From sequence record MT446412.1: a stretch of 64,000 nucleotides of DNA, one strand, 5' to 3'. The DNA comes from Escherichia virus TH41. A program made the translations under genes and the position numbers. Positions 8,385 through 33,983 of this stretch are shown one piece after another (the first letter of the stretch is position 1; every line of letters begins with the position of its first letter). The notes beneath the pieces were generated by a model that searched no databases, was not told where the DNA came from, and was given only the letters and a program-made list of their open reading frames with translations.

Positions 8385-8401
8385 ATTAGTGCTTTAATGG
8401 G

Positions 8402-8426
8402 AACATGATAGTATGTTCCCTGGATA
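8402..8426 (+). promoter_or_regulatory. candidate MotA-dependent middle promoter
   Basis: TGCTTTA box, about 12-nt spacer, TAGTAT -10 inside inverted repeat GGGAACAT/ATGTTCCC. Confidence 0.4.
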
Positions 8427-8456
8427 ATAAAACTTTAACCATCTGAAGGAAATACC

Positions 8457-19612: not shown

Positions 19613-20071
19613 ATGACTACTATCGATTCAAGTGTTTACATTCGCCGCAATAAACTTCGTCGCATTTTTGAAACGGAGTTCCTCAAAATTAATAATGCTA
19701 TCAACAAGGCTTGTAAAGAAGCAGGCCTTGAGGCATTCTTCATTAAGTACAGTCCACATCTGTTGGACCGTGCAATCCAACGTGAAATTGATGAACAATA
19801 TGTTTTTGACTTGTTTGGAAAAATCACACCACATGTAAAAGAAATCGTTGAATTCTTGGAGATGAAACCGCTCCCGGAAGTTGAAGCACAAATTGACCCG
19901 AATATGAACTACCGTCCACTTCGTCTGGAAATTACAGACAAGAACCTGTGGTTAGGAATGACAGTTAACCCAGCTCTTCCTGGGAAGTCTCCGACCATGT
20001 GTTGTCGTATGGCGTTTGTTAACTCTAATCGTCTGGAAGGAAAAATTAGCACAAAAGTGATTTATATCTAA
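19613..20071 (+). CDS. regB: RegB site-specific endoribonuclease
   Basis: VYIRRNKLRR.FE.EF..INN...HLLDRAIQREIDE.YVF.LF...CRMA closely matches T4 RegB; AAGGAG RBS. Confidence 0.9.
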   Translation: MTTIDSSVYIRRNKLRRIFETEFLKINNAINKACKEAGLEAFFIKYSPHLLDRAIQREIDEQYVFDLFGKITPHVKEIVEFLEMKPLPEVEAQIDPNMNYRPLRLEITDKNLWLGMTVNPALPGKSPTMCCRMAFVNSNRLEGKISTKVIYI

Positions 20072-20081
20072 TGGGGAATTC

Positions 20082-20624
20082 ATGAAAAAAGTAATCGCCA
20101 CCTTACTATTGACAGTTAGTATGTCTGCCCATAGCGTAGAGCCTACTTTCAGTAATGAACAAATGGAAAACCTCCAATATGCTTATGCGTTTGGAGAACA
20201 GTTCCAGAAAAATGGTAAGTACAAAGAAAATCCGCACCAACATAATGGTTTGGGATATATCATGGCTGGTTTAACCTGGCAGGAGAGTTCTGCTGGGATT
20301 AATACTGGATTAAATAAAGATAAGCATCATGCATATGGTATATTCCAAAATTATCTTCCAACCGTGCGCGAACGTGTGAAACAGGTTGGGTGGACAATGA
20401 CAGATAAAGAAATAATCAAGATGATAAGCAAGAGAGAGAACAGTGCACGCTGGGCTTACATTGAGCTTTCATACTGGTTGAATATTCATAAGGGGGATAT
20501 AAGGAAAACACTATCATCATATAACGCAGGATGGAATGTGAAAGCTGGTAATACGTATGCTTCACAGGTCCTAGAAAAAGCTAACTACTTAAAATCACGA
20601 GGCCTATTAAAAACGGTGGATTAA
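20082..20624 (+). CDS. secreted lytic-transglycosylase-like protein
   Basis: Signal peptide; SLT-like WQESS...AYGIFQ motif. Confidence 0.5.
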   Translation: MKKVIATLLLTVSMSAHSVEPTFSNEQMENLQYAYAFGEQFQKNGKYKENPHQHNGLGYIMAGLTWQESSAGINTGLNKDKHHAYGIFQNYLPTVRERVKQVGWTMTDKEIIKMISKRENSARWAYIELSYWLNIHKGDIRKTLSSYNAGWNVKAGNTYASQVLEKANYLKSRGLLKTVD

Positions 20625-20626
20625 AA

Positions 20627-20986
20627 ATGGTAAGAGTTATAACTTTAGCCATAGGGTTAGTATTCAGCATGGGAGGAATAGCTTCAGTACAGAGCGACGA
20701 CAACAACAGCATCATAGAATATGCAACGAGGACGGCTAAAGATTATTGCGCCGCAAGCAATGTGGATTGTATAATCCAGTTCAGCGCCAAGCTCACCGCG
20801 GCATATAAAGATGGTCAAAATGATGTTGAACATACACTTTTGAAAAAGAATGTATTATCCAACAAATATGAAAAGAAATTATTTGAAATGGATTGCATTC
20901 TGTCAAGTGCAAAATATAAGGCGGCCTGCACCAGTATGGTTGACAGGTTAGTGGATTCATATAATAGAGGATTGAACTCTAAATGA
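20627..20986 (+). CDS. secreted hypothetical protein
   Basis: N-terminal signal-like hydrophobic segment; 119 aa. Confidence 0.45.
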   Translation: MVRVITLAIGLVFSMGGIASVQSDDNNSIIEYATRTAKDYCAASNVDCIIQFSAKLTAAYKDGQNDVEHTLLKKNVLSNKYEKKLFEMDCILSSAKYKAACTSMVDRLVDSYNRGLNSK

Positions 20987-21462
20987 TTACCCAGTATATT
21001 AAGGGCGATATCGTCGCCCTCTTTCTTCAAGGCAATATTATTGCACATGGTTGTAACTGCTTTCACACAATGGGTTCTGGTGTAGCTGGACAGTTGGCGA
21101 AGGCTTATCCAAAAGTTTTAGAAATAGATAAAACCACTACTGAATATGGTTCTCGTGATAAATTAGGCGATATGTCTATTGTTTTTAAACATAAGCCGAC
21201 AGGTTTTGGCATGTGCTATAACTTGTATACACAATACGAGCCAGGCCCTAATCTTGATTATGGCGCTTTAGTAAATTGTATGATAGAATTAAATCTACAA
21301 GCAGAAACCCTTTTGTTTAAACCGGTAATTTATATTCCACGTATTGGTTGTGGTATTGCAGGTGGAGATTGGGAAAAGGTTTCTAAATTAATCGACATGT
21401 TTACTCCTGATATTGATTTAATAGTGGTGGATTATGAAAGCACATTACCCACATCCGTTTGA
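20983..21462 (+). CDS. macro-domain protein (ADP-ribose binding/processing)
   Basis: GDIV...NIIAHGCNCF...GSGVAGQL and ...IPRIGCGIAGGDW resemble the macro-domain Gly-rich signature. Confidence 0.5.
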   Translation: MITQYIKGDIVALFLQGNIIAHGCNCFHTMGSGVAGQLAKAYPKVLEIDKTTTEYGSRDKLGDMSIVFKHKPTGFGMCYNLYTQYEPGPNLDYGALVNCMIELNLQAETLLFKPVIYIPRIGCGIAGGDWEKVSKLIDMFTPDIDLIVVDYESTLPTSV

Positions 21463-21646
21463 CCCTAAAAACAAAGCGGAAATTATTCGACGCTGGACCG
21501 AAACTCGAGTAACCAAATGTCCTATAAAAAGTCAACACAACACTGATAAATGGTATATCGGTGAATATGTTGAATATACTTTTATAGATAAAAATAAACG
21601 TAAACAGCACGTAGAAGAATATTGCCTAAAGGTACAATGGTTATGA
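21434..21646 (+). CDS. hypothetical protein
   Basis: 70 aa overlapping upstream gene end. Confidence 0.4.
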   Translation: MKAHYPHPFDPKNKAEIIRRWTETRVTKCPIKSQHNTDKWYIGEYVEYTFIDKNKRKQHVEEYCLKVQWL

Positions 21647-21849
21647 GCCAAGCCCGAATTCTTAAAACGGCCAAATGTGAAAAATGTGAATGGCCGGTAA
21701 TCGCAGCTTTGTGCAACGATGAAATGAATTGCGAATACGATTACTGGTGGTACTGTTCTAATAAAGGATGTTCTAATCATAAGGGTGAAGGTTTTCATTC
21801 TGGTTATTGCGAACATCCTAAATTTGTGCGATATGGGGAACCGAAATGA
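21643..21849 (+). CDS. Cys-rich small protein (putative zinc-binding)
   Basis: CEKCEW...CNDEMNCEYDYWWYCSNKGCSNH...C. Confidence 0.45.
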   Translation: MSQARILKTAKCEKCEWPVIAALCNDEMNCEYDYWWYCSNKGCSNHKGEGFHSGYCEHPKFVRYGEPK

Positions 21850-22031
21850 GTTTAAGCATTAGTCAGAAAAGTAGATTATTTGAGCTTATCCATGAGCTTT
21901 TGGATGAGCATACAGAAGCAAACGCCTTTTATGATGAATACGGCCCAATAGATGCCGAACATCAGGAAGAATTTGCCAATCGATTTGATGCGAAAGAAAA
22001 CGAATTAATAGCTTATGTGAATACGCTTTAA
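21846..22031 (+). CDS. small acidic hypothetical protein
   Basis: 61 aa. Confidence 0.4.
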   Translation: MSLSISQKSRLFELIHELLDEHTEANAFYDEYGPIDAEHQEEFANRFDAKENELIAYVNTL

Positions 22032-22040
22032 GAAGGTGAT

Positions 22041-22613
22041 ATGGCGAGTTTAATTTATCATTACGCAGCAATGAATGCAGGCAAAACAGCTTCATTGCTG
22101 ACTGCAGCTTATTCCTATAAAGAGCGTGGAATGAGTGTGCTTTTGCTAAAACCTGTTATTGATAATCGGGACTCGGAAGGCGAAATTAAATCACGCATCG
22201 GTATTAGCCAGGAAGCAAACCTGGTAACGGCCGACATGAACCTGTTTGAATTCTATAAATGGGCCGAGTCTCAAAAGGATATCCATTGTGTCCTGGTCGA
22301 TGAAGCTCAATTTTTGTTACCAGAGCAAATTGACCAGTTAGCTCAAGTGGTTGATAATTACAATATCCCCGTTATGTGTTACGGGTTAAGAACAGATTTT
22401 CGGGGTCAATTATTTCCCGGTTCGGCCAGACTTCTGGCTATTTCGGATAAACTGGTTGAATTAAAGGGCGTCTGTCATTGCGGCCGGAAAGCAACCATGA
22501 CCGCTCGAGTAATCGACGGTGCTGCTGTAAAGGACGGCGAGCAAGTATTGGTCGGTGGGAATGAATCGTACGTATCTTTGTGCAGAAAACATTGGCTCGA
22601 ATTAACAAGCTGA
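22041..22613 (+). CDS. tk: thymidine kinase
   Basis: MASLIYHYAAMNAGKTASLL...VDEAQF...CHCGRKA matches T4 Tk. Confidence 0.95.
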   Translation: MASLIYHYAAMNAGKTASLLTAAYSYKERGMSVLLLKPVIDNRDSEGEIKSRIGISQEANLVTADMNLFEFYKWAESQKDIHCVLVDEAQFLLPEQIDQLAQVVDNYNIPVMCYGLRTDFRGQLFPGSARLLAISDKLVELKGVCHCGRKATMTARVIDGAAVKDGEQVLVGGNESYVSLCRKHWLELTS

Positions 22614-22620
22614 GGTTCGC

Positions 22621-22896
22621 ATGGTATACAAGGTTTGGACGTATATCTCTATTTTGATATTCCTGGTTTTGGTTTTTGTTCCTATGCAACAGGACCAGGA
22701 AAGGTATGAGCGCGAAGTCGAAATCGTTGCAAGTACCTATCACTCGTTCAACAAAGAGTGCCCCAATAAAAACGGAATAAGCCTGCAACAAGCATACTAT
22801 TTGTCAACGGTCACCAGTCCAAAACAACGGGTCTGGGTTGAACGTAATTTTGCAGGTTTATTTTCAGAGTACTGCTTTAATTTTAAACGTCTATAA
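22621..22896 (+). CDS. small membrane protein
   Basis: N-terminal TM helix; 91 aa. Confidence 0.45.
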   Translation: MVYKVWTYISILIFLVLVFVPMQQDQERYEREVEIVASTYHSFNKECPNKNGISLQQAYYLSTVTSPKQRVWVERNFAGLFSEYCFNFKRL

Positions 22897-22899
22897 ATA
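22892..22899 (+). promoter_or_regulatory. late promoter TATAAATA (MotA-box TGCTTTA lies 12 nt upstream)
   Basis: Exact TATAAATA upstream of rI; TGCTTTAA at 22874-22881. Confidence 0.5.
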
Positions 22900-22968
22900 C
22901 AGTTACTAACTAGTATTCCGCTATGTTAAGGCTGCAAAGCGTAATCATGACCAACAATAGGAGTCCTT

Positions 22969-23262
22969 ATGGACCTTATTCGAGGACTTTCATTAAGTCT
23001 AATAATCCTGGGCTGTTTAGGTCCAAATCTGTCCTCTGCAACAGATGGGAAGTTTACCCAATATGCAGATAGTGCGATGAAGATTTATTCGCAATTCAAA
23101 GAACCAAGCGTGCACCAATCCGAACAGTTCTGGGCGTTTATCAAGACTGAATGGAACAACAAAAGCCAATGCGAAACTGAAATTACCTGCAAAAGCGATG
23201 GTAAAGCTGCGGCGAGAGAGTACGCTAAATTAATGAAGGTAAAATTGGAAGATGAAATTTGA
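22969..23262 (+). CDS. rI: lysis inhibition regulator RI (antiholin)
   Basis: 97 aa with N-terminal signal-anchor; SEQFWAFIK and AREYAKLMKVKLEDE match T4 RI; adjacent to tk. Confidence 0.75.
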   Translation: MDLIRGLSLSLIILGCLGPNLSSATDGKFTQYADSAMKIYSQFKEPSVHQSEQFWAFIKTEWNNKSQCETEITCKSDGKAAAREYAKLMKVKLEDEI

Positions 23263-23635
23263 TGATTTCGTAACGGGTCGTGGGTCTGAGGTGGATTCAT
23301 ATATTGGGTGGTTGTTAGTCTCTTTGGCTTATTTTAAGTCCGCCCATCTTGAAACCAAAAGTTACGCCCGCCATAAAGCTTATGATTTCTACTTCACAGA
23401 AATCCAAGGTCCACTCGACCAGTTCAGTGAGCAATGGTTAGGTTACAGCGGGAAACAATACAAAGCTGCATTACCGTCCGCCTCGGACTTGCCGAAAGAT
23501 ACAATTTTGTTTTTAGATGAAATGATTAAAAGCTCGGAAAGAGTCTATAAAGTTGTACCCAAGGCTATTCAATCGACTCTGGACGATATCGTTGGAGTTT
23601 TCTTTCAGACTAAGTATCTGTTAACATTAGAGTAA
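23252..23635 (+). CDS. hypothetical protein (rI.1 position)
   Basis: 127 aa. Confidence 0.45.
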   Translation: MKFDDFVTGRGSEVDSYIGWLLVSLAYFKSAHLETKSYARHKAYDFYFTEIQGPLDQFSEQWLGYSGKQYKAALPSASDLPKDTILFLDEMIKSSERVYKVVPKAIQSTLDDIVGVFFQTKYLLTLE

Positions 23636-23639
23636 TTCA

Positions 23640-23668
23640 AAAGGTCTGCCTTCGGGTGGACCTTTTTT
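23640..23668 (+). terminator. Rho-independent terminator
   Basis: AAGGTC-loop-GACCTT followed by TTTTTT. Confidence 0.65.
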
Positions 23669-23677
23669 CATTTAGGG

Positions 23678-23707
23678 GTTTACATCACCATAAAAAGGGT
23701 GTACTAT
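23678..23707 (+). promoter_or_regulatory. early promoter
   Basis: GTTTAC-18 nt-TACTAT followed by TATCCCATCAACTACTGAGGAG 5'UTR cassette. Confidence 0.5.
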
Positions 23708-23735
23708 TATCCCATCAACTACTGAGGAGAACACA

Positions 23736-23939
23736 ATGAGAATTAAAAATATCAAGATTGATGCAGTTAATACTGGTGATGAGGTTGTTATCTATCTTAA
23801 TGATTATGCAATCTTTATGGACAGTGCCACTGATGAAGAAGTGGTTGAACTCTTACAGAAAGCTCCATTTGAACTGTGTGAAGAAGATGCTACCCATCTT
23901 TCATCAGCAATTTTCTCATTATCATATGTGGTGGAATAA
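23736..23939 (+). CDS. small acidic hypothetical protein
   Basis: 67 aa. Confidence 0.45.
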   Translation: MRIKNIKIDAVNTGDEVVIYLNDYAIFMDSATDEEVVELLQKAPFELCEEDATHLSSAIFSLSYVVE

Positions 23940-24175
23940 TGAAACTTACAAATACCATGGTTTCATTGGAATATGAAACCAATAATCATATTCTTGAAAT
24001 TAAGATATTTGATGATGGAAGCATATTTGCTGATTACCGCGGATATAGAATCCGCCTGGAAAAGGATGAGCTCAAGGAACCATGGCTCCTTAAAGACACC
24101 TTAAAGGGCTGTGGGTGTAAACTGAAGACTACTCAAGTCCAAGAATTAATTTCTACCATCAAAAAATACTGGTGA
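23939..24175 (+). CDS. hypothetical protein
   Basis: 78 aa. Confidence 0.45.
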   Translation: MKLTNTMVSLEYETNNHILEIKIFDDGSIFADYRGYRIRLEKDELKEPWLLKDTLKGCGCKLKTTQVQELISTIKKYW

Positions 24176-24179
24176 TATT

Positions 24180-24362
24180 ATGTTAACTACTGAACAGATT
24201 GAACAAATCCTTAAACTCGCATGGCATATTGAAAATGCTGCTAATGACCTGGCTGTTGAATATTGTGAAGGTTATTCATATTCTGGAATAGAGCAGTGCA
24301 AGCGTGATTTGGCTAACTCTAAAGCAGCATTGGTTGGGTATCTGAATGAGTTGAAAGAATAA
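24180..24362 (+). CDS. hypothetical protein
   Basis: 60 aa. Confidence 0.4.
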   Translation: MLTTEQIEQILKLAWHIENAANDLAVEYCEGYSYSGIEQCKRDLANSKAALVGYLNELKE

Positions 24363-24619
24363 TGGCTGTTGGATTTGCAAAAGATGGTGCTGAACAGTTA
24401 GAGATGGAAGCGGTTGTCCAGGCCGCTATCACCCATGCGAGAGCACAAGTTGCAGTTGAAAGGGAGTCTGCTGAATTCTGTTTTGACTGCGACGAAAAAA
24501 TTCCTGAAGCGCGGAGACAAGCGATTAAAGGCGTGATATATTGTGTTGGTTGTCAATCAATGCATGATGAAATTTTTAAACGTGAGCCAAGAAACTGTTG
24601 GCATAGGAGCATGAGATGA
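24362..24619 (+). CDS. C4 zinc-finger protein (DksA/TraR-like)
   Basis: CFDCDEKIPEARRQAIKGVIYCVGCQ = CxxC-x17-CxxC. Confidence 0.55.
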   Translation: MAVGFAKDGAEQLEMEAVVQAAITHARAQVAVERESAEFCFDCDEKIPEARRQAIKGVIYCVGCQSMHDEIFKREPRNCWHRSMR

Positions 24620-24710
24620 TTTACTATCTTGAACCTTGGGCTTGGTTAACAATGGCTGTAGGGCCTGTTTTAATTGGTTTATTCTTTTCATGGTTAGCGA
24701 GGAAACTGTA

Positions 24711-24926
24711 ATGTTATATGACCCAAGTGGTAATTCTGAAAATGGTGTGATTGTTCTGGAGCCTGAGCATCCAGTTGGTGACGTATACCGCCCAGTTGAA
24801 GTGTGCGAATGTAATTTTGTTAAAGGTAATACTGGTGGGATTTCCATTGAGCAAGATGATGATGTTATTTACCTGGATGCAAGCCAAGTAGAAGCGCTTT
24901 ATAGTATTTTAAAACATAACCGTTGA
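24711..24926 (+). CDS. hypothetical protein
   Basis: ATG 24711 after GAGGAAA RBS; 71 aa. Confidence 0.4.
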   Translation: MLYDPSGNSENGVIVLEPEHPVGDVYRPVEVCECNFVKGNTGGISIEQDDDVIYLDASQVEALYSILKHNR

Positions 24927-24936
24927 GGAACAGAAA

Positions 24937-25497
24937 ATGATTATTGAAACAACTGAATTGTTTGGCGAACTGACCGCTGAAGTAGTTAATAACGCAATTG
25001 AGCTTTGTCAAGAAGACGATAAAATCGTACTAACTATCCAAGATATCAAACCACTTTACGATTTAAAGGTTTTGGACAGACACGATTATCTTAATGGTCG
25101 TGCTAGTGCTTCTGTTGATATCAATGATGATATGTATGCCTATATCTATAAAAATGAAAACGGGTTTAATCTGGAAAATGGTATTGAATGTCTGAGCATC
25201 AGCGATTCTGATAAATTCTTTGATTGTATTTTCAAACTCTTCCAGGAAGAATGCAAGCCGGAAGTTGAATGGAAAGTCCCGGGCCAGGATGCGGTGATTC
25301 GTTCTAGTGAAACCTTTGAGGGTGACGAAGAAGAACTGAATTATGATACCGAATTAACCGTGTATCAACATCAGGGTCGTGATTTGCTATCCTTGACCCA
25401 GACCCACGACGGTTTTAATGAAGTGGTATTTACTAAAGACGAGCTAAAAGTTTTAGTCTCTTATCTGAACTCTGTTATCCCAACTATGAACTCTTAA
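24937..25497 (+). CDS. acidic hypothetical protein
   Basis: 186 aa. Confidence 0.5.
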   Translation: MIIETTELFGELTAEVVNNAIELCQEDDKIVLTIQDIKPLYDLKVLDRHDYLNGRASASVDINDDMYAYIYKNENGFNLENGIECLSISDSDKFFDCIFKLFQEECKPEVEWKVPGQDAVIRSSETFEGDEEELNYDTELTVYQHQGRDLLSLTQTHDGFNEVVFTKDELKVLVSYLNSVIPTMNS

Positions 25498-25507
25498 GGA
25501 AAATATT

Positions 25508-25960
25508 ATGATTATCAATGCAAACTCTTGGCACGCTCGCTTCCATGACCGTTTTTATGACCGTCATTCTCGTCCACACTCATTGTGTGCTTACTTTTGG
25601 AAAATGGTTTGGGCTTGTTTTGTTTGTGCCATTTTTATCGGTAGTATGGTTTTTGGATTAACTGTCGCTGGGGCTGGTGTATTAGAGCATTTCTTTGTAT
25701 TAAGTACCCCGGTTGGTTTAGGTTTAGGGTTTATTTTAGGACTAGCTACACTGGCTCTTATTCTGGCGGTAGCATTTGGTTTAATGTATGGTCTAATGAA
25801 TTTATGGTCCTGGTATGATTTACGTAAAGAAGAAAAGGAATGGCAACGTATTCTAGCCAAACGTGAAGGAAAGGAAACTAAAGAAAACATCGTTATTCAA
25901 TACATTAAAGCTCGTAAATCTAAGATGTGTCCTGTAATCCACTTCGAGGACAAAAAATGA
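25508..25960 (+). CDS. membrane protein
   Basis: Two or three hydrophobic helices; 150 aa. Confidence 0.5.
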   Translation: MIINANSWHARFHDRFYDRHSRPHSLCAYFWKMVWACFVCAIFIGSMVFGLTVAGAGVLEHFFVLSTPVGLGLGFILGLATLALILAVAFGLMYGLMNLWSWYDLRKEEKEWQRILAKREGKETKENIVIQYIKARKSKMCPVIHFEDKK

Positions 25961-26967
25961 GAACAGTTATGAAAGGCTACTTCGGTAGCCACCTTTATGG
26001 AACAAGTACTCCTGAATCTGATGTTGATTTTAAAGAAATCTTTGTTCCTCATCCGCGAGATATCCTGCTCGGAACCGCGATGAACCATACCAACCTGAAC
26101 ACGAATAATACGGCTACCAAAAATACAAAAGATGATGTTGACCATGAACTTTATAGTCTGAAATATTTCTTTAAACTGGCGGCCGAAGGCGAAACCGTTG
26201 CTCTGGACATGATTCACACGCCGGCTGACCTGGTTGTCAAATCCGATTTACCAGATGTATGGAAGTTTATCCAGGATAACCGTTCACGGTTCTATACAAC
26301 TAACATGAAAGCCTATTTGGGGTATGTCCGTAAGCAAGCTTCCAAATATGGTGTTAAAGGTTCACGATTGGCCGCTCTACGTGGTGCACTGACAATCATT
26401 AACCAGATTCCTGAACAGTGGGTCGACTATCAAGAAGATGGTTCGACTAAGCAACGTCGAACTAAGGTAGAAGATATCAAACACCGGCTTCCAGAGAATG
26501 AATTCTGCGAATGGGTATTTCATAACCACGAGAAAACAGGTCCTCAAACGTTCTATACTGTTCTTGGACGTAAGTACCAAACAACGTTATCAATTACAGA
26601 GCTCAAGCAATCTCTGAATAAACTCGATGCCGAATATGGTGAACGTGCTCGTAAGGCAGAAGCCAATGAAGGTATTGACTGGAAAGCTCTGAGCCATGCT
26701 TATCGTGCTGGATACCAGTTGAAGGAAATCTATCAAACTGGTGACCTGGTTTATCCGCTCAAAAACGCTTCTATTATTAAAGCAATCAAAGCTGGCGATA
26801 TGCCTTTCAAAGTAGTCCAAGGCCTGTTGGAAAATACTGTCGATGAAGTCGAAGTCCTGGCTATCCAGGCCCATAAGAACGGTATGCCTGAGAAGGTAGA
26901 CATGAAGTTCTGGGACAAGTTCGTTGAAGAGGTATACCTTGACAACCACAATTCCTATTATCGTTAA
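25957..26967 (+). CDS. predicted nucleotidyltransferase (Pol-beta superfamily)
   Basis: YFGSHLYGTSTPESDVDF = hG[GS]-x9-13-DhD NTase signature; ATGA overlap start. Confidence 0.6.
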   Translation: MRTVMKGYFGSHLYGTSTPESDVDFKEIFVPHPRDILLGTAMNHTNLNTNNTATKNTKDDVDHELYSLKYFFKLAAEGETVALDMIHTPADLVVKSDLPDVWKFIQDNRSRFYTTNMKAYLGYVRKQASKYGVKGSRLAALRGALTIINQIPEQWVDYQEDGSTKQRRTKVEDIKHRLPENEFCEWVFHNHEKTGPQTFYTVLGRKYQTTLSITELKQSLNKLDAEYGERARKAEANEGIDWKALSHAYRAGYQLKEIYQTGDLVYPLKNASIIKAIKAGDMPFKVVQGLLENTVDEVEVLAIQAHKNGMPEKVDMKFWDKFVEEVYLDNHNSYYR

Positions 26968-26970
26968 ATT

Positions 26971-26999
26971 CTAAGGAACCCTTCGGGGTCCTTTTTTAT
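26971..26999 (+). terminator. Rho-independent terminator
   Basis: GGAACCC-TTCG-GGGTCC then TTTTTT. Confidence 0.65.
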
Positions 27000-27010
27000 T
27001 TTAAAAAGTA

Positions 27011-27040
27011 GTGTACAACCAGATGGTCATGAGGCATAAT
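27011..27040 (+). promoter_or_regulatory. early promoter
   Basis: GTGTAC-18 nt-CATAAT. Confidence 0.5.
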
Positions 27041-27081
27041 GATTCCATACTGAGTTAACAAATAAACAAACGGAGAATAAA

Positions 27082-27288
27082 ATGTTAGAATTAATCAAAG
27101 CTGCTGGTGAAAAAGGTCTGATGGTTAACACTCGTGACCCAGAACAACGTCAAGCATTTGGTGAGTTAAAAGCCAAAGGTCTGGTTAAAGCATCCCTTGG
27201 TATTGGTAATGCTTTGCGTGTGACTTTGACCCCTGCAGGTAAAGCAATGTTCTTCCCTAAACCATTACCAAAACGTCGTCGCAAGTGA
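27082..27288 (+). CDS. small basic protein, possible DNA-binding
   Basis: 68 aa with basic C-terminus PKRRRK. Confidence 0.45.
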   Translation: MLELIKAAGEKGLMVNTRDPEQRQAFGELKAKGLVKASLGIGNALRVTLTPAGKAMFFPKPLPKRRRK

Positions 27289-27294
27289 GGAATT

Positions 27295-27597
27295 ATGAAA
27301 AAGTATGAACTTGACATGATTGAGGCATGTCTGAAATCTGCTGACCATTTTAAGTTGAAAATGCACAAGTTAAGAGGAATGGTCAAAACTTCAGAAGAGA
27401 AGAAGCGATATGCTCTGAAGGAGAAATGTAAAGCTCTTATCATGATGGATAAGCTGCAAATGGTCGCCGCAGAAGCTCACAGGACACGTAAGGCTGAGGC
27501 CCTTGGTGTTTATATGGCAGAGCAGCTTCATCGTGCCCAGCAAGCCGTTAAGAGCGTCTGGTTCAGCGGTGAAAATACTGAAAGAACTTTTAATTAA
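27295..27597 (+). CDS. hypothetical protein
   Basis: 100 aa. Confidence 0.45.
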   Translation: MKKYELDMIEACLKSADHFKLKMHKLRGMVKTSEEKKRYALKEKCKALIMMDKLQMVAAEAHRTRKAEALGVYMAEQLHRAQQAVKSVWFSGENTERTFN

Positions 27598-27599
27598 AT

Positions 27600-27629
27600 G
27601 TGTACATAGTATGGGGATAGACGTATAAT
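27600..27629 (+). promoter_or_regulatory. early promoter
   Basis: GTGTAC-18 nt-TATAAT inside inverted repeat GGGGATAG/..TTCCCAT. Confidence 0.5.
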
Positions 27630-27665
27630 GTTCCCATACTGAGTTACCAAATACTGGAGAATAAA

Positions 27666-28190
27666 ATGGAAGCCAAATCAATCTTTAATCTGATTAATTA
27701 CAATAATGGTAATTTTAAATCAGAAGCACAAAGTAAGTTCTTTAATGATGTTGCTTGTGCAGGCGAGATTACAGTATCAGGTGGTCAGACTTATAAAAAC
27801 GCCTGGAACTGGATTGTGACTGTTGATTCAGTTGGTATTGTTGATGTGTATAAAAACACCAACAAAAACCGCTCTTTGTTCTGGTCAAGAGAGACTAATG
27901 CAGAATATCAAGCGGCAAGAGCAAAGAAAAATATGCCTACTGAATCTGATGTACAAAACATCAAATCAGATATCCAATATTATGATGGTCTGATTGCTGA
28001 ACAACAAGCAGTGCTTGATAAGTTCAATGAAATCAAAGCATGTAAAGAGATTCCTGAATTCATGCGGGAATCAGTTAATGAACAATACAATCTCACTTCA
28101 GAGCGTATTGAAACCTATACCAAACAAAGAGCAGAGCGCCAGGTACTCCTTCAGAAGTTTGAAGAGCGTTTAAAGACGGTTCTCGCATAA
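27666..28190 (+). CDS. hypothetical protein
   Basis: 174 aa. Confidence 0.5.
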   Translation: MEAKSIFNLINYNNGNFKSEAQSKFFNDVACAGEITVSGGQTYKNAWNWIVTVDSVGIVDVYKNTNKNRSLFWSRETNAEYQAARAKKNMPTESDVQNIKSDIQYYDGLIAEQQAVLDKFNEIKACKEIPEFMRESVNEQYNLTSERIETYTKQRAERQVLLQKFEERLKTVLA

Positions 28191-28192
28191 AC

Positions 28193-28216
28193 GCTTTATA
28201 CCAAGGATGGTATAAT
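28193..28216 (+). promoter_or_regulatory. candidate MotA-dependent middle promoter
   Basis: GCTTTATA box, 12-nt spacer, TATAAT. Confidence 0.45.
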
Positions 28217-28253
28217 GGTTCTGACCTTTGATTAATCTATTGAGGAAATTATT

Positions 28254-29105
28254 ATGTCACAAGCAATTAATGAAATTCGTTCTGAAGTTAAAAACGCTGT
28301 TAAATTCACAGGACGTATTCCAAGCACTAAAGATGTGGTTTTAAATGTTCTGTATATGATGTGGAATAAGTTCAATGTTTGTACTAATTCTGCTGAATTC
28401 ACTAAAATCTTTGAAAAGACCAAAGGCCTTCTTACATTAGAAGACCGAGTCATGAAATCTCTTCATCGTTCGGGTATGTTGTCTCGCGCTAATGCCAAAA
28501 TTATTCTTAAAAAATATAACAAAGGTTACGACCTTTATGGTCGTGCGATTAGCACCATGACGTTTGATGAAGTGGTTAAAGACCTTTGGAAGAACCAACG
28601 CCGTTTGCTGGCGCTTGGTGCGCGTCTTGCGAGTGGTCAAGATAAACAAATGACCTTTAAAACCAATAATTCTTTAGATTATAAACTATTTAATGTTATT
28701 AAAGGTCAAAATGAAGGTGAATACAGTATTTCTTCTTTTAGTGGATGTCAATACGAAAACTGGAAATTCCATCTTCGTTTGGCGTTGTCTGTACTGGAAT
28801 GTCATGGTGTTCTTACCTTTTATGATGTTCAAACTGGAGGCGTCCAGCGTATTAAATTATGTCAAATTAAAGACCAAGTTGAAGTCGAGAGTCCTTCAGA
28901 ACAAGCTCCTAAAATGGAACCTGTTCCAGTGCGAAGCAATGAAAAATATTCAGAGCAAATTGAGCTTTTCACTAAACAGATTGAAGAACTTAACATCACC
29001 ATCCAGCAACAAGATGATGAAATTTTCCGCCTGACAGGATTGAACAGTGCAGCGAAAGCTGAACGTCAGAAACTGATGAACGTTATTGAATTACTTAAGG
29101 ATTAA
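28254..29105 (+). CDS. hypothetical protein with C-terminal coiled coil
   Basis: 283 aa. Confidence 0.55.
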   Translation: MSQAINEIRSEVKNAVKFTGRIPSTKDVVLNVLYMMWNKFNVCTNSAEFTKIFEKTKGLLTLEDRVMKSLHRSGMLSRANAKIILKKYNKGYDLYGRAISTMTFDEVVKDLWKNQRRLLALGARLASGQDKQMTFKTNNSLDYKLFNVIKGQNEGEYSISSFSGCQYENWKFHLRLALSVLECHGVLTFYDVQTGGVQRIKLCQIKDQVEVESPSEQAPKMEPVPVRSNEKYSEQIELFTKQIEELNITIQQQDDEIFRLTGLNSAAKAERQKLMNVIELLKD

Positions 29106-29189
29106 TAATGGAATGGCTTGCTGTTCTTGGTTATGTAATTGCCGCCACAGGTATTCTGTGGCTTATATTCTCAAATATTGTAGGTTAAT

Positions 29190-29405
29190 ATGGAAATCGT
29201 AGGTTTTATTCTCCTTTACTTTGTGCTAGGATTCATGACGACCATTATCATTCATAAATCGGGTGATTGGAATCCAATCGAAATTGAATCAAGCTATGAC
29301 GCAGTATTCATTACACTAGTATGGCCTCTGCTTTGGTTTGTTTGGGCAATTATGATGGTGTTTTGGCCTATTGCTAAATTCTATGAAAAATTATTTGGAC
29401 TATGA
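29190..29405 (+). CDS. small membrane protein
   Basis: 71 aa, two TM helices. Confidence 0.45.
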   Translation: MEIVGFILLYFVLGFMTTIIIHKSGDWNPIEIESSYDAVFITLVWPLLWFVWAIMMVFWPIAKFYEKLFGL

Positions 29406-29406
29406 T

Positions 29407-30288
29407 ATGAAAATTAAAACACGTAAAGAATATTCTCGATTTGAACAGCGTGAAGGACGTGCAACCCGTCTTATCGCGATGAATTCTCTGGTTAACTTTG
29501 GCAAAATTAAATCAGGTTCTGCCACCCAGGGTTATGGCCAACGTATTGTAAGAATTAACTCTCTGAATGATTACTGCCGCCGCCCGGCGTTTTTGTTTGG
29601 TGCTACGGTTCGTAAGAGCATCAAGGAACTCCTGGCAGCTGGACTTCGTATTCGTAAAGCTCCGGTTAACATCAAGAACTATAATTTCAATTCCAGTAAC
29701 TTGATTATCAATATCAAGAATGATGGCGTGCAGATTAAGTTCAAGCCAACCACCAAGGGCGATGTTGCTCTTTGTGATACCTTTAAAGAGGTTATGGGTA
29801 TTGCACTGTTTTATATGCGTTATGCCGTTGAAGCATACACGTTTGAAGAAGATACAAATTATATCCATCAAACAGAAAAATTCCTTAAAACTATAGTCAT
29901 TGATATTAAATTAACTAAAGAATATCTTTTGTCTTATGCTCCTTATCAAGAGAAAAAGGAACCAGAAATGGCGGAACGTATCCCTACTGCATCATATGGT
30001 CCAGCATTTGCGGGTCAGTTTAAATCTTATGACCAGGCTAAAATTTCGCCACTGGACGTTAAAAACATGTACAAATGGAAAGTCCAACCATCCAGCTCTC
30101 TTGAAATCTTTAACCCACCAATGAAGCCTATTGAGAGCTATCATGCTGATGCTATCCAGGAATCAGTTAACCGCTTAAATGGTCTGATTGAAGATGAGAA
30201 AAAGGGTATCCAGGATGTCCTGAATCGCATCAAGAACATGGAAACGCAACGCAATAAATTGCAAGCTGCAATCAAAGCATTAAAATAA
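29407..30288 (+). CDS. hypothetical protein with C-terminal coiled coil
   Basis: 293 aa from ATG 29407. Confidence 0.5.
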   Translation: MKIKTRKEYSRFEQREGRATRLIAMNSLVNFGKIKSGSATQGYGQRIVRINSLNDYCRRPAFLFGATVRKSIKELLAAGLRIRKAPVNIKNYNFNSSNLIINIKNDGVQIKFKPTTKGDVALCDTFKEVMGIALFYMRYAVEAYTFEEDTNYIHQTEKFLKTIVIDIKLTKEYLLSYAPYQEKKEPEMAERIPTASYGPAFAGQFKSYDQAKISPLDVKNMYKWKVQPSSSLEIFNPPMKPIESYHADAIQESVNRLNGLIEDEKKGIQDVLNRIKNMETQRNKLQAAIKALK

Positions 30289-30289
30289 T

Positions 30290-30319
30290 GTTTACTTCCA
30301 AGGATGGAGGGAGTATAAT
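30290..30319 (+). promoter_or_regulatory. early promoter
   Basis: GTTTAC-18 nt-TATAAT. Confidence 0.5.
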
Positions 30320-30346
30320 GAATTCCTACTTTATGAGGAGAACACT

Positions 30347-31336
30347 ATGACACGTAACGAATATATCCAGGCCTTTAACGCAACTATCGACACAAAAGTA
30401 AAACCATTAATAGGCGAATTGGCTATCCTTTTAATTATCAATTATTGGTTAAATCAGATTGACTCGACGATTGTTGCATCTGGGCGCTTCAAGAAAGACA
30501 TTGCAACTATTGCGAGTCGTGCTGGTAACGATGATATCAAGAAAACTTTTAAAAGTTCCCGAGTCCTGGCATACCTGGTTAATAAAGACCTTCTTAATAA
30601 GTTTGGTGTTGAATCCAGGCGTGGTAAAGGTACAATTGGATATCATTGGTTTGGCGATGTTGAAAAATACTATCTTGATAAACAAGGCTATACTGCTTCT
30701 GAATTCGCAAATTGTTGGGCTCGTGAATTCAGAGATAACAAAATGTCTATCATCAAATCAGCGACAAAAATGATGGATGGTGATTACCGCACTATCTGCC
30801 ATTTGGCAGAGCACATGATAAATGTTAAAGAGTCTGGCGAAAACCAGGTAATTATTACAGTTAAGTATGAATTCTTTACGCCAGTGGCTACTCCAGAAAA
30901 TGTCAAAAAGTATCTTGATGCTGCGAGCGCGCTTACTTCACAGCTGCAGTGCGCCCTTAACTATATGCGCACTGTTGAAAAAATTAAAGTAGACCCTATC
31001 ACCAGTACTCATGGTTGGAAAGGTTGGAAAATTGTGGCGACATTGCGTGAAGTTAAATGTGCAAAACAACCAACTGTTGCAGAAATTTATAAAAAGAAAA
31101 GTGAGGAAATTATGAATGCACCACAAGAAACCACCCTTGAAGACCTGATTGATAATCTGAATAATGAGCCAGTGGAACAAAAAGCGCCTGAAATTGTTGC
31201 TCTGGAAATGGCGTATAATAAAGCTCTTGCTGTTAATAAAAAGGCAACTGAAGACTATACCAAAGCCAAGCGACTTTGGGAAGAATCAACTAATCGTCTG
31301 GATAAACTGGAACAGGCTCTGGAGCTGCTGAAATGA
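30347..31336 (+). CDS. hypothetical protein with C-terminal coiled coil
   Basis: 329 aa. Confidence 0.55.
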   Translation: MTRNEYIQAFNATIDTKVKPLIGELAILLIINYWLNQIDSTIVASGRFKKDIATIASRAGNDDIKKTFKSSRVLAYLVNKDLLNKFGVESRRGKGTIGYHWFGDVEKYYLDKQGYTASEFANCWAREFRDNKMSIIKSATKMMDGDYRTICHLAEHMINVKESGENQVIITVKYEFFTPVATPENVKKYLDAASALTSQLQCALNYMRTVEKIKVDPITSTHGWKGWKIVATLREVKCAKQPTVAEIYKKKSEEIMNAPQETTLEDLIDNLNNEPVEQKAPEIVALEMAYNKALAVNKKATEDYTKAKRLWEESTNRLDKLEQALELLK

Positions 31337-31650
31337 AACAACGTTTAGCTGAAGATATTGCTTCAGCATCTAATACAGGTTTATTGGAATTTATTAAAGA
31401 AGCCGACCTTGCTGAAGTTGAACTGAATGGTAAGATTCATGGCTGTGATGATTATAGCCAAGATATTCCTGATTGGAATGCTATTATTAAAATTGTCGAA
31501 CGTCGTGAAAAAGCTTCTAAGAACGTTCCGAACTGTCCTATGTGTGGAACCGAACAGGTCCAGTTGGTTCAATGGCGGCATAATCCGCTTCAATATAAAT
31601 GCAGACATTGTAAACACCGATTTGAGCGAGAAGAAAATGGCAAAGCGTAA
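31333..31650 (+). CDS. zinc-ribbon protein
   Basis: CPMCGTEQ...CRHCKHRF. Confidence 0.5.
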
Positions 31651-31879
31651 AGAATATGTTGAGACCGCTGAAAGAGTGGTCCGTGAATTAACTCTGGCTT
31701 ATTATAAAGAACACGGTAAACTTCCGGATAGTTATTCAGTATTGAAATCTGCTTTAACTCGTTCATATAATAATATGCGTTCAGAAGTTTATGGTATTAT
31801 GGTCAAACATAAAGAACAAACCGGTCAATACCCCGATTATACTGAGACCTTCAAACAAGTATTAGGAATTAAGGAATAA
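31637..31879 (+). CDS. hypothetical protein
   Basis: 81 aa. Confidence 0.45.
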
Positions 31880-31880
31880 T

Positions 31881-32144
31881 ATGTTTAAAGTATATGGTTA
31901 CGATTCATCTATCCATCGCTGTGTTTTCTGTGATAATGCAAAACGTTTACTTGACGTTAAAAAACAACCTTACGAATTCATTAACGTTATGCCTGAAAAA
32001 GGTGTGTTTGATGATGAGAAGATTGCTCAACTCCTGGTTGCGCTTGGTCGCGAATCCCAAATTGGTTTGACCATGCCGCAAGTATTTGCCCCTGATGGAA
32101 GTCATATTGGTGGCTTCGACCAACTGCGAGCTTATTTTAAATGA
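31881..32144 (+). CDS. nrdC: thioredoxin/glutaredoxin NrdC
   Basis: MFKVYGYDS.IH.CV.CDNAKRLL.VKKQP.EFIN.MPEKGVFDDEKIA.LL..LGR..QIGLTMPQVFAPDGSHIGGFDQLR.YFK, near-identical to T4 NrdC. Confidence 0.95.
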   Translation: MFKVYGYDSSIHRCVFCDNAKRLLDVKKQPYEFINVMPEKGVFDDEKIAQLLVALGRESQIGLTMPQVFAPDGSHIGGFDQLRAYFK

Positions 32145-32304
32145 TTGAATTATTGTTGGGTGTTTTGTATCTTATCATCGGTATTGGTTATGCTAAGACC
32201 CTAGCTAAATTAGATGATTTCGGTGCAGGTGACTTTTGTTGGTGGCTGACGTCTATGATTTGTTGGCCTTTATTTCTGGTTGGTGCTTCATTCTGGAACT
32301 TTAA

Positions 32305-32493
32305 ATGACCGAATTTGATATGGCTTATGAAACCTGCGCAAGAGAGTTCACAAGAGAGTTTGATACTCCTGCGCTTAGTAAAGAAACCGTATTGGCAAAT
32401 CTCCCGGATTGGTTAAAAGAAGAAGCCAACAAATGGGGTTGGACTGATACTTGTGTACGCGACCAGCTATTTGAATTTATGGTGGAATTATGA
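32305..32493 (+). CDS. hypothetical protein
   Basis: 62 aa. Confidence 0.4.
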   Translation: MTEFDMAYETCAREFTREFDTPALSKETVLANLPDWLKEEANKWGWTDTCVRDQLFEFMVEL

Positions 32494-32798
32494 GTGAATT
32501 AGACGGACAAACAATTTATCTGGGTGACGGTAAAGAAGACGACCTGGAATATAAACTCTATGAATATATGGTAGCCTTGGCGAAAGAAGAAGGTATTGAC
32601 TTTGCTGTGGCTAACCCGTATGGCGAGAACACTGTTGTAATCGGCGGCACTGCTTATGAAGTCCAATGGCAATATGTTGGACTTGAATCTGAAATATACG
32701 AAGAAGATAAGCATGGCGATTGGCATCCGGTTGGTCCTTGGTACTGGGACGACGGCGAGCCTGATTTTGAAGTATCAAGCTATTGGAGTGACCAATGA
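32490..32798 (+). CDS. acidic hypothetical protein
   Basis: 102 aa. Confidence 0.45.
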   Translation: MSELDGQTIYLGDGKEDDLEYKLYEYMVALAKEEGIDFAVANPYGENTVVIGGTAYEVQWQYVGLESEIYEEDKHGDWHPVGPWYWDDGEPDFEVSSYWSDQ

Positions 32799-33115
32799 CT
32801 ATTGAAAATGAATTAGATGTTGATGCTGTTTTAAGCGAAATCATTGAAGACCATGACGCGTTTACTGAATCATACGAGTTTGAATTTTCGGACTACCTGG
32901 TTCCGGTTGAATTAGGCGAATGGACACAAACCGGCAAATACCAATATCGCCAGGCAATTTATTTCAGCAAAAAACATAATGTGCATGTGGCTGTAAACGA
33001 AACTCGTACCGGCTCTTATCATACTGACTGGGACCATACGGTCCCGACTGTTGAACTGGTTAAGCTCCAAGAACGTGTCGTAACCCAAACTATCAGAGAA
33101 TGGATTACGCTATAA
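32795..33115 (+). CDS. hypothetical protein
   Basis: 106 aa. Confidence 0.45.
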   Translation: MTIENELDVDAVLSEIIEDHDAFTESYEFEFSDYLVPVELGEWTQTGKYQYRQAIYFSKKHNVHVAVNETRTGSYHTDWDHTVPTVELVKLQERVVTQTIREWITL

Positions 33116-33232
33116 AACCATGGTATACCGCTCGATGGGAAACTGTCGAGCCAGAGGAACCTGTTTACAACGATTCCGAAATAGATTATAATGAACCTTC
33201 AAACAATGATTTAATTGATATGGAGTTTGGAT

Positions 33233-33406
33233 ATGAGTACCAAAATTGAAGTTGGCCGTCATAAAGGCCGTCTGATTGAGCATTCGCTTTACGAATTGTC
33301 GGATTCTCGTAAGTTACCCGATGAAGAATCTGCTTTAATTTTTGCTGCAGCTGACTACATTCATTGGCTTGAAGCCCAACTCCGCTTTTCTGATGAGGCC
33401 TTTTAA
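33233..33406 (+). CDS. hypothetical protein
   Basis: about 57 aa from internal ATG. Confidence 0.35.
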   Translation: MSTKIEVGRHKGRLIEHSLYELSDSRKLPDEESALIFAAADYIHWLEAQLRFSDEAF

Positions 33407-33678
33407 TGTTTTTAGAAATTGTTAATATTCATGCTGCGGCTCAATCAGGTTTTATGAAAGAGCTTCAAGACGCAGGATTTAAAAATGGCGATGTTATCCA
33501 GGCGTTAAGACAACGTTTTGACCCTGATGTTGAATGTAATGTTTGGGACGTTGTTGAAACAGATGAATACCTTTTTGATACCATAGAAATTGAAGGGTCA
33601 TGGACCTGTATCACTGAGTATATGATAATTGATAATGGTAACGTTGACTGCCATTATCCTTGTTTTAGGATTGTTTAA
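33406..33678 (+). CDS. hypothetical protein
   Basis: 90 aa. Confidence 0.45.
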   Translation: MFLEIVNIHAAAQSGFMKELQDAGFKNGDVIQALRQRFDPDVECNVWDVVETDEYLFDTIEIEGSWTCITEYMIIDNGNVDCHYPCFRIV

Positions 33679-33983
33679 TGAAAACTGCATTAGTCTATAC
33701 CGAAAAGTTAAACGGTGACAAGGTCTGGAAACTTCTTATCAAAGGAAGTCCTACTGACCAGTTTATGGCCACCTGTGTGGGATTGTATACTCGTCCTACC
33801 AAAAAGATGATTCGTCAATTTAAACGGTTGCATCGTTCGTTCTATGGGGTCTGATATGGATGCTCTTATTACGGTATTTTGGGCCGGAGTTGCTTTATTC
33901 GGATTGTTGTTAGTGCTAAGTTGCACTGCTAAACTATTAGGATATTAATAAATACCCTTATCTAATAATGGTAAGGGTTTATT

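Follow-up and report, generated by a model that had tools for sequence, protein, structure and literature searches.

An RlaP-family nucleotidyltransferase of Escherichia virus TH41, ortholog of T4 NrdC.11, and its possible place in phage tRNA repair

The tk-to-nrdC early region of Escherichia virus TH41 (MT446412.1; 64,000 nt were analysed, referred to here as the window) includes a 336-codon reading frame that was singled out from the DNA letters, and from translations of its reading frames, as a minimal Pol-beta-type nucleotidyltransferase (NTase). The question it raises is to which NTase family it belongs, and what it might do for the phage. Two kinds of role had been put forward in that sequence-only reading: RNA or tRNA repair or modification to counter host anticodon nucleases, and interference with nucleotide second-messenger immunity. 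As set out below, the NTase call is borne out by a family profile match and by conservation of the catalytic residues, and the gene, though genuine, is nothing unusual in a T4-like phage, being already known as nrdC.11 and as an RlaP.

The gene and its family

The reading frame lies on the + strand, and its ATG, stop codon, and length are all as originally reported. A GTG at 25927 is ruled out as the start codon, because every homolog begins at the Met encoded by the ATG at 25957. This start codon overlaps the stop codon of the ORF upstream as ATGA (25957-25960), and a 68-aa ORF follows downstream. Features at the DNA level, in window coordinates, are:

25508..25960, + strand: upstream 150-aa ORF, predicted membrane protein, whose stop overlaps the NTase start
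25946..25949, + strand: GAGG Shine-Dalgarno sequence, 7 nt 5' of the ATG, read directly from the sequence
25957..26967, + strand: CDS of the T4 NrdC.11 ortholog, an RlaP-family (PF10127) Pol-beta nucleotidyltransferase, 336 aa plus stop
26973..27002, + strand: possible intrinsic terminator, a bulged GC-rich hairpin and then UUUUUUAUUUU, 6 nt past the stop

The hairpin has a folding energy of -10 kcal/mol with a z-score of only -1.26, which is not exceptional, and it was not picked up by a terminator consensus scan; its function as an intrinsic terminator is plausible but not established. To judge from substitution patterns, the NTase gene is under purifying selection, with a dN/dS of 0.18 relative to VR20, the closest RefSeq phage, and of ~0.03 relative to T4, for which dS is saturated. 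Among the other window ORFs of at least 80 aa, a string resembling hG[GS]..DhDh occurs only in 20983-21459, which by position is Tk.4, annotated as a phosphatase in VR20 and T4. There is no RNA ligase or kinase gene within the window.

The predicted protein is 80% identical to T4 NrdC.11 (NP_049709.1) over 336 of 336 residues, without gaps, and the window is from a Gaprivervirus-like T4-type phage. Homologs are found in 1522 phage records, and 3134 representatives of 50%-identity clusters are homologous at E ≤ 1e-3. Comparison with RlaP, CCA-adding, and CD-NTase profiles had been proposed along with the original call: the outcome is membership of RlaP (PF10127), scored at 45.3 bits where the gathering cutoff is 23 (E 1.1e-11), and neither of the other two families gives a Pfam match at E values up to 1. 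The RlaP match spans amino acids 8-134, equivalent to 25-142 of the 249 profile positions. Of 136 diverse relatives, 135 match the same profile; PHROG 388 matches over the full length (E 1e-129). At the sequence level, the NTase family match is far above chance.

What the sequence-only reading lacked was the identity of the gene: this is T4 nrdC.11, already a “nucleotidyltransferase” in RefSeq and already an RlaP in the literature, where T4 NrdC.11 has been named as a member of RlaP cluster 5 (2025 preprint, 10.64898/2025.12.29.696909). The practical outcome for the window is an annotation as nrdC.11 ortholog, RlaP-family nucleotidyltransferase, rather than “thioredoxin”. T4 NrdC.10 was considered as a possible tandem second RlaP and rejected; it has only weak AAA/STAND ATPase matches and is absent from the window.

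Catalytic residues and predicted structure

The NTase signature, MRTVMKGYFGSHLYGTSTPESDVDF, is present as first quoted, with one correction: G10-S11 and D22 are separated by 10 residues, not 11. Conservation was assessed in a sample of 136 diverse representatives at 34-52% identity. G10, D22, and D24 are invariant among these, and S11, D60, D62, and D84 are at least 90% conserved; variation at the catalytic aspartates, which had been named as evidence against the call, is thus not seen at D22 or D24. The whole Pol-beta constellation (hG[GS], DhD, and third carboxylate) aligns with S30-G31-S32, D43, D45, and D82 of the canonical, short RlaPs. D62, which aligns with their invariant D82, is on this basis probably the third catalytic carboxylate.

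An AlphaFold (AF2) model was built on the 136-sequence alignment (pLDDT 95.3); one made from 25 close homologs was dropped, with a pLDDT of 72.6 overall and below 50 for the catalytic N-terminus. The retained model predicts an NTase core and a helical domain, the latter split by a beta-rich insert. A helical region of ~250 aa had been described as following the signature: the helical domain itself does appear in the model, but a beta-rich segment, at roughly residues 154-208, divides it. Features at the protein level, again in window coordinates, are:

25957..26241, + strand: NTase core, aa 1-95; beta1, GS, helix, beta2, helix, beta3, loop, beta4, two helices, and a short strand (AF2)
25984..25989, + strand: G10-S11 of the hG[GS] motif
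26020..26028, + strand: D22-V23-D24, the two metal-binding aspartates (DhD), aligning with D43/D45 of canonical short RlaPs
26140..26142, + strand: D62, probable third catalytic carboxylate, in strand beta4 (model strand E61-67)
26359..26664, + strand: insert of ~100 residues, aa 135-236; helix, beta-rich subdomain (aa 154-208), and long helix, absent from canonical RlaPs
26677..26706, + strand: D241-W-K-A-L-S-H247-A-Y-R250, in the C-terminal helical domain, with the K-x3-[H/Y]-A-x-R pattern common to canonical RlaP

The insert alone has no match in Pfam, and a sequence and profile search of the PDB with the protein gave chance matches only (E>0.3). Alignment to the canonical short RlaPs with hhalign (probability 94.5%) covers 120 columns, the significant part being the N-terminal ~130 residues. 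Deleting the insert in silico lengthens this alignment to 166 columns (E 5.5e-9), with DWKAxSHAxR now paired with KxKxYxYALR of the short RlaPs (K161..Y165-A-L-R168). The C-terminal fragment by itself gives an E value of 0.21, which is not significant, in an unchanged register. Within this motif H247 and R250 are invariant among the 136 representatives, and D241, W242, and K243 are at least 90% conserved.

Possible functions

Activity in this family is known from two Pseudomonas enzymes, PfRlaP and PaRlaP, which extend the 3'-OH ends of RNA by one or two NMPs, prefer Mn2+, and are inactive on DNA and protein; they favor the 3' end of an anticodon-loop break over an acceptor-type end, but in total E. 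coli RNA they also label species the size of rRNAs, tRNAs, and fragments, and they extend single-stranded RNAs as well (10.64898/2025.12.29.696909).

The genomic neighborhoods of relatives offer a second line of evidence. For the 80 closest cellular loci, neighbors within 6 kb were surveyed by a simple ORF and BLAST screen. RtcB, Pnkp-ligase, Pnkp/Hen1, Ro60, or T4-type Pnkp plus Rnl1 is near the relative in 16 of these, and a canonical RlaP adjoins the long-type relative in 18; in about 50 of the 80, this simple screen picked up no RNA-repair gene and no other RlaP. At one locus (L007) a long RlaP, a T4-type Pnkp, and an Rnl1-type ligase form a tight same-strand cluster. At 25 distant viral loci, RtcB, Pnkp, Hen1, Ro60, Rnl1, or a PseT-like kinase is nearby in six (RtcB in three, Rnl1 in two), and an HD-domain phosphohydrolase is immediately downstream of the relative in five. 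Among the T4-like phages themselves, VR20 encodes pseT and rnlA, about 85 kb from the NTase gene, and these are not adjacent to nrdC.11 in T4 or in the window phage. Counted genus by genus, phage records containing NrdC.11 and those containing Rnl1 are almost equal in number, a correspondence confounded by the common descent of the Straboviridae.

Taken together, a role for NrdC.11-type RlaPs as the nucleotide-restoring step in phage tRNA repair seems to us the probable one, by a modest degree of confidence; we infer the activity, the substrate, and the cooperation with Pnkp and Rnl1. D22, D24, and D62 would bind an NTP and a pair of divalent metal ions (probably Mn2+), and one or two NMPs would be added without a template to an RNA 3'-OH. 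Pnkp (the pseT product) would act first, on the ends that host anticodon nucleases leave, turning 2',3'-cyclic phosphate into 3'-OH and 5'-OH into 5'-phosphate; RlaP would then put back the nucleotide removed by “excising” nucleases such as RloC; and Rnl1 (the rnlA product) would finally seal the break. The chemistry of the ends is compatible with this order: T4 Pnkp leaves the 3'-OH that RlaP needs, and Rnl1 joins a 3'-OH to a 5'-phosphate. The end-incompatibility with RlaP that has been raised for RtcB (10.64898/2025.12.29.696909) therefore does not arise for the T4 route.

Of the roles first put forward, RNA or tRNA repair against anticodon nucleases is thus the one favored, by the RlaP assignment, the biochemistry of the Pseudomonas enzymes, and the RNA-repair genes beside relatives. 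The same prediction for RlaP has been made in a comparative study of jumbo phages (PMC7824862). If the proposal is correct, nrdC.11 would be a dispensable counter-defense accessory; in keeping with accessory status, a viable genome-reduced T4 lacks the nrdC.11-mobD.3 block. What the phage would gain is uncertain, however, because nucleotides added without a template would in most cases be the wrong ones, as is conceded in the preprint describing the Pseudomonas enzymes (10.64898/2025.12.29.696909).

Other functions could be at the level of RNA ends in general, of proteins or small molecules, or of nucleotide signals. In the first case, the enzyme would tail or repair tRNA 3'-CCA, mRNA, or sRNA ends outside of anticodon-loop repair, changing the stability of host or phage RNA. 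The wide range of RNA sizes labeled by PfRlaP and PaRlaP in total E. coli RNA, and their extension of single-stranded RNAs, would fit such a function, as would the lack of linkage between nrdC.11 and pseT/rnlA in T4-like genomes. An HD-domain protein follows the RlaP relative at seven loci, and the pairing of NTase and HD domain is reminiscent of how bacterial CCA-adding enzymes are built. The Pseudomonas RlaPs nonetheless favor the 3' end created by a nick in the anticodon loop over an acceptor-type end, and the recurrent neighbors RtcB, Pnkp, Hen1, and Rnl1 are ligases and end-healing enzymes, which point to break repair rather than tailing. Nor is there a profile match to the CCA-adding/poly(A) polymerase family (PF01743) in Pfam or NCBIfam, or a member of it among the top 50-60 fold matches. 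A general RNA 3'-end function is accordingly considered unlikely.

Modification of a protein or small molecule, whether AMPylation of a host HEPN-type RNase toxin in the manner of MntA or nucleotidylation resembling that by the antibiotic nucleotidyltransferases KNTase and LinB, has still less to recommend it, and we would give it little chance. The MntA profile (NCBIfam NF047752) scores 13.4 bits against a cutoff of 60, over 18 residues around the GS motif only, and the fold matches are of a kind generic for minimal NTases, at 10-13% identity. E. coli proteins are not substrates of the Pseudomonas RlaPs; the genes conserved beside relatives serve RNA repair and are not HEPN toxins; and no HEPN family was found among the neighboring window ORFs scanned against Pfam.

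Interference with nucleotide immune signaling, either by CD-NTase-like synthesis or capping of a signal or by a HalB-like decoy oligonucleotide that holds a host effector off, appears very improbable. The resemblance to HalB is to a generic NTase core, at only 12% identity. No PADLOC match was obtained at E≤1, in a version (v2.0 of 2023) that predates the 2025 release of the HalB structures and may not cover Hailong; CD-NTase/SMODS families are absent from the Pfam hits to E=1, and CD-NTase-type structures from the top 50-60 fold matches. The second-messenger role suggested from sequence is therefore unsupported. No defense-type effector recurs among the neighbors of relatives, and the Pseudomonas RlaPs add only one or two nucleotides, to pre-existing RNA. 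Finally, that the protein is an inactive or purely structural member of the NTase fold is scarcely credible, given GS, DxD, and third-Asp positions that are invariant or nearly so in the 136 representatives (34-52% identity) and a gene under apparent purifying selection.

There is the further question of whether NrdC.11-type RlaPs differ in function from the canonical enzymes. Long and short RlaPs often occur side by side as separate genes, as in the 18 cellular loci noted above, and are therefore probably not interchangeable. It is conceivable, although we would put it forward only tentatively and as a minority view, that the NrdC.11 type is a functionally distinct “long” RlaP whose conserved beta-rich insert could serve as an RNA-recognition module, which might give it a selectivity for substrate or nucleotide that the promiscuous canonical RlaP lacks. 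This would explain the paired cellular genes, and also the division among phages: in the records searched, nearly all long-type matches are in T4-like phages, whereas short-type matches are mostly in Pseudomonas and other large-genome phages, and in no Escherichia phage.

RNA repair as a form of counter-defense has its founding example in the Pnkp/Rnl1 pathway of T4, which nucleases that excise the wobble nucleotide, such as RloC, have been proposed to overcome. Were NrdC.11-type RlaPs to put the missing nucleotide back, T4-like phages would answer the RloC move with a third repair step, and a gene conserved in >1500 sequenced phages would gain a function; if the long type is indeed distinct, that third step in T4-type tRNA repair against RloC-type excising anticodon nucleases would be a selective one.

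Comparison with known systems

The closest structural likenesses outside the family are distant. HalB (the Hailong defense NTase, PDB 9dbh) and the nucleotidyltransferase-like protein 3c18 share 10-12% identity with the window protein; 113-138 residues superpose on the model at about 4 Å rmsd, with no relationship detected at the sequence level. Kanamycin nucleotidyltransferase ANT(4') and the MNT/HEPN-type minimal NTases likewise have no family-level sequence match to it, and they differ in genomic setting: ANT(4') and MNT types are found with resistance cassettes or HEPN toxins, relatives of the window protein with RNA-repair genes.

T4 NrdC.11, annotated as “nucleotidyltransferase” in NC_000866, is the ortholog of the window protein. 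Gene order in the tk-to-nrdC early region is common to the window, VR20, and T4, with the NTase gene on the same strand as its neighbors. The immediate flanks differ: T4 nrdC.11 has the homing endonuclease gene mobD upstream, in the place occupied in the window by the 150-aa predicted membrane-protein ORF, which has no apparent connection with the NTase function, and nrdC.10 downstream, where the window has the 68-aa ORF.

The canonical RlaPs of P. fluorescens and P. aeruginosa share with the window protein the PF10127 family, the GS/DxD/third-Asp constellation, the K-x3-[Y/H]-A-x-R helix motif, and, to judge from the model, an overall plan of N-terminal NTase and then C-terminal helical domain. 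The window protein is about 70 residues longer, owing to the insert at aa 135-236, and belongs with NrdC.11 in cluster 5, while the known activity is that of cluster 1a RlaPs; an insert of ~100 residues could alter substrate or activity. Like the canonical RlaPs, relatives of the window protein are found in operons with RtcB and Pnkp.

The gene and its surroundings

The open reading frame lies on the forward strand and has 336 codons, just as the sequence-only reading had placed it, quoted start included:

25957-26967, forward: NrdC.11-type coding sequence, from ATG to the end of the stop codon, 336 codons, beginning MRTVMKGYFGSHLYGTSTPESDVDF
7 nt upstream of ATG 25957, forward: Shine-Dalgarno sequence GAGG, from the sequence
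25508-25960: 150-aa membrane ORF, its stop overlapping the nucleotidyltransferase start, in the place of a T4 neighbour
27082-27288: 68-aa ORF, in the place of a T4 neighbour

The overlap with the preceding stop codon has the form ATGA. A longer reading from a GTG at 25927 was rejected, since all homologs start at the Met of ATG 25957. The gene is clearly real. Its dN/dS is 0.18 against the ortholog in Gaprivervirus VR20, the closest RefSeq relative, and ~0.03 against T4, a pair for which dS is saturated; homologs are found in 1522 of 50,697 phage records, and clustering at 50% identity gives 3134 cluster representatives that contain one.

The window comes from a T4-type phage near VR20 (93% nucleotide identity over positions 20000-34000), with the regB-vs-tk-rI-...-nrdC-49 gene order conserved. 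T4 NrdC.11 is 80% identical to the product over 336 residues with zero gaps, and on sequence comparison the ORF is its ortholog. The protein scores 45.3 bits against the RlaP family (PF10127; gathering score 23) and aligns over its whole length with PHROG 388, “nucleotidyltransferase” (E 1e-129); the same label is already carried in RefSeq by the T4, VR20, SP18, and other copies. “Thioredoxin” is instead the name of the ortholog in many UniRef entries and records of T4-like phages (P896, dhabil, dhaeg, vB_YenM_P8, and X20 among them), and one record, ZCEC14, has “putative HNH homing endonuclease.” Homology is probably not the source of these names, which would have spread from the label of the locus, nrdC.11, and from mobD next to it.

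In T4 (locus L002, 10344-13209), nrdC.11 lies between the HNH homing endonuclease gene mobD and nrdC.10, which encodes a 325-aa protein with weak AAA/STAND NTPase matches; the window lacks both. In the window the gene is flanked by small ORFs of unknown function, with no RNA ligase or kinase gene near; VR20 does have pseT (Pnkp) and rnlA (Rnl1), ~85 kb off. Further along the window, three consecutive ORFs of ~280-330 aa (28254-29105, 29371-30288, and 30347-31336) correspond by VR20 annotation to NrdC.6, NrdC.5 (Pfam DUF7235), and NrdC.4. Neither that annotation nor Pfam gave a function for them; in translations read by eye, their C-terminal tails look charged and coiled-coil-like.

Conserved residues, predicted fold, and an insert

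The sequence-only reading had proposed an hG[GS]-x11-DhD signature followed by a helical region. The motif is present, but the spacer from G10-S11 to D22 is 10 residues, not 11. Only one other window ORF of at least 80 aa has an hG[GS]-x8-14-[DE]h[DE]h string (AGGDWEKVSKLIDMFTPDIDL, at aa 126 of ORF 20983-21459); it is probably coincidental, because this is the position of Tk.4, an annotated phosphatase in VR20 and T4. In an alignment of 136 representatives (34-52% identity), G10, S21, D22, D24, Y131, H247, R250, and P267 are invariant, and conservation is 90% or more at S11, D60, D62, D84, Q127, K130, and D241-W242-K243. The sequence-only reading had named catalytic aspartates not conserved in homologs as a refutation; this case therefore does not arise.

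A first structure model, from 25 close homologs, was discarded for its poor N-terminus. The model from the 136-sequence alignment (pLDDT 95.3, pTM 0.86) predicts:

aa 1-95: nucleotidyltransferase core; strand 2 begins at D22/D24, and strand 4 carries D62
aa 99-149: helices
aa 154-208: beta-rich segment
aa 213-335: helical bundle

The expected helices are there, but the region is not purely helical. Comparison with a profile of canonical short RlaPs (14 sequences from bacterial loci; the two scanned match PF10127 end to end, E 1e-62 and 1e-73) aligned aa 6-133 with 94.5% probability, pairing D22/D24 with D43/D45, D62 with D82, and D84 with E104. With aa 135-236 removed, the alignment lengthens to 166 columns (E 5.5e-9), and DWKAxSHAxR aligns with the helix that bears KxKxYxYALR in the short type; the C-terminal piece alone keeps this register at a non-significant E of 0.21. 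A Pfam search of the insert gave zero matches. We read the NrdC.11 type, the “long” RlaP, as an RlaP with an insert of ~100 residues within its helical domain.

Neighbourhoods of the long RlaP in cells and viruses

Eighty bacterial and archaeal loci were fetched (product 34-51% identical, full length), their ORFs called, neighbours clustered, and cluster representatives checked against Pfam. In 18 of the 80, a long RlaP (~320 aa, at about 8001-8990) is followed directly on the same strand, after 0-300 bp, by a canonical short one (~265 aa, full-length PF10127); these include L014, L016, L018, L021, L026, L033, L035, L049, L053, L054, L058, L075, L077, L079, L084, and others. Both members keep their catalytic residues, and the arrangement suggests two non-redundant nucleotidyltransferases, or a complex. 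Sixteen loci have RtcB, a bacterial Pnkp kinase-phosphatase-ligase, Hen1, Ro60/TROVE, or T4-type Pnkp/Rnl1 within 6 kb. The RNA-repair genes and short RlaP are typically single-copy at most, so these frequencies are far above chance placement. On a 4-kb contig of a Bathyarchaeota MAG (L007, 62-3803), five genes stand close together on one strand. They encode the long RlaP, an NT5C-like nucleotidase, a Pnkp of T4 type with kinase and HAD phosphatase parts, a 143-aa product for which no matches were found, and an RNA ligase of Rnl1 type.

Of the distant viral loci, 25 in number, three have RtcB, two have Rnl1, and one has a PseT-like kinase. An HD-domain protein (~170 aa) is encoded directly downstream in five (L151, where it is 804 bp away, L154, L159, L161, and L164) and likewise in two bacterial loci (L030 and L059), a pairing reminiscent of bacterial CCA-adding enzymes. 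In KVP40-like and large T4-type viral contigs (L139-L150), nicotinamide/nicotinate phosphoribosyltransferase-like genes (nine loci) and PRPP-synthetase-like genes (five loci) recur 1.5-4 kb downstream; this probably reflects an NAD-salvage module whose gene order is conserved, and not a functional link.

In the phage database the 1522 long-type records are T4-like almost throughout. The short type has 78, mostly Pseudomonas phages including phiKZ and others with ~250-350 kb genomes, and zero from Escherichia phages. Record counts for NrdC.11 and Rnl1 nearly match by genus (Escherichia 608/636, Klebsiella 286/287, Shigella 83/83, Acinetobacter 69/69); Streptomyces is in the top-ten list for Rnl1 (131 records) and absent from that for NrdC.11. 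The match is compatible with a shared pathway; common descent alone would yield the same.

A candidate role in tRNA repair

A December 2025 preprint assigns T4 NrdC.11 to cluster 5 of a PF10127 similarity network, “of unknown function,” and shows that two Pseudomonas cluster-1a RlaPs, favouring Mn2+, extend an RNA 3′-OH by one or two NMPs (or dNMPs), preferably at an anticodon-loop break, are inactive on DNA and protein, and partly rescue aminoacylation of a tRNA lacking one nucleotide (10.64898/2025.12.29.696909). A jumbo-phage comparative study had earlier predicted that phage RlaPs replace nucleotides lost to RloC-type nucleases before ligation (PMC7824862). From family, residues, fold, and neighbourhoods, together with this activity of another subfamily, we infer that in vivo the NrdC.11-type protein is, on balance, probably an untemplated RNA 3′-end nucleotidyltransferase in phage tRNA repair. 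A host anticodon nuclease would cleave the tRNA, some also taking out a nucleotide; Pnkp would make 3′-OH and 5′-phosphate ends, RlaP would put back one or two nucleotides, and Rnl1 would seal the break. T4-type ends fit the 3′-OH need of RlaP, avoiding the end incompatibility noted for RtcB (10.64898/2025.12.29.696909). The nrdC.11-mobD.3 block is missing from a viable genome-reduced T4, which fits an accessory counter-defence gene.

The same chemistry on another RNA target is a distinctly less likely reading. An MNT- or KNTase-type enzyme acting on protein or small molecules is improbable: NCBIfam gave an MntA match only, below threshold, and protein was not a substrate of the Pseudomonas enzymes (10.64898/2025.12.29.696909). 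That the protein interferes with signalling by nucleotides, by a HalB-like activity or otherwise, is more improbable still, with zero matches in the 2023 version of PADLOC, which may not cover the Hailong system of HalB, and an inactive protein is scarcely credible beside the invariant aspartates. The remaining probability goes to explanations outside these.

Gene, family, and proposed tRNA repair role already stand in the literature and RefSeq annotation. Three points were not found stated in the texts read, and may be in the original RlaP description: the insert, the frequent tandem with canonical RlaP in cellular RNA-repair loci, and the largely different phage groups of the two types. Together they suggest a hypothesis of modest interest and open to testing, namely that the long-type enzyme is specialised and perhaps selective; what sets the T4 type apart from the characterised RlaPs is its conserved beta-rich insert.
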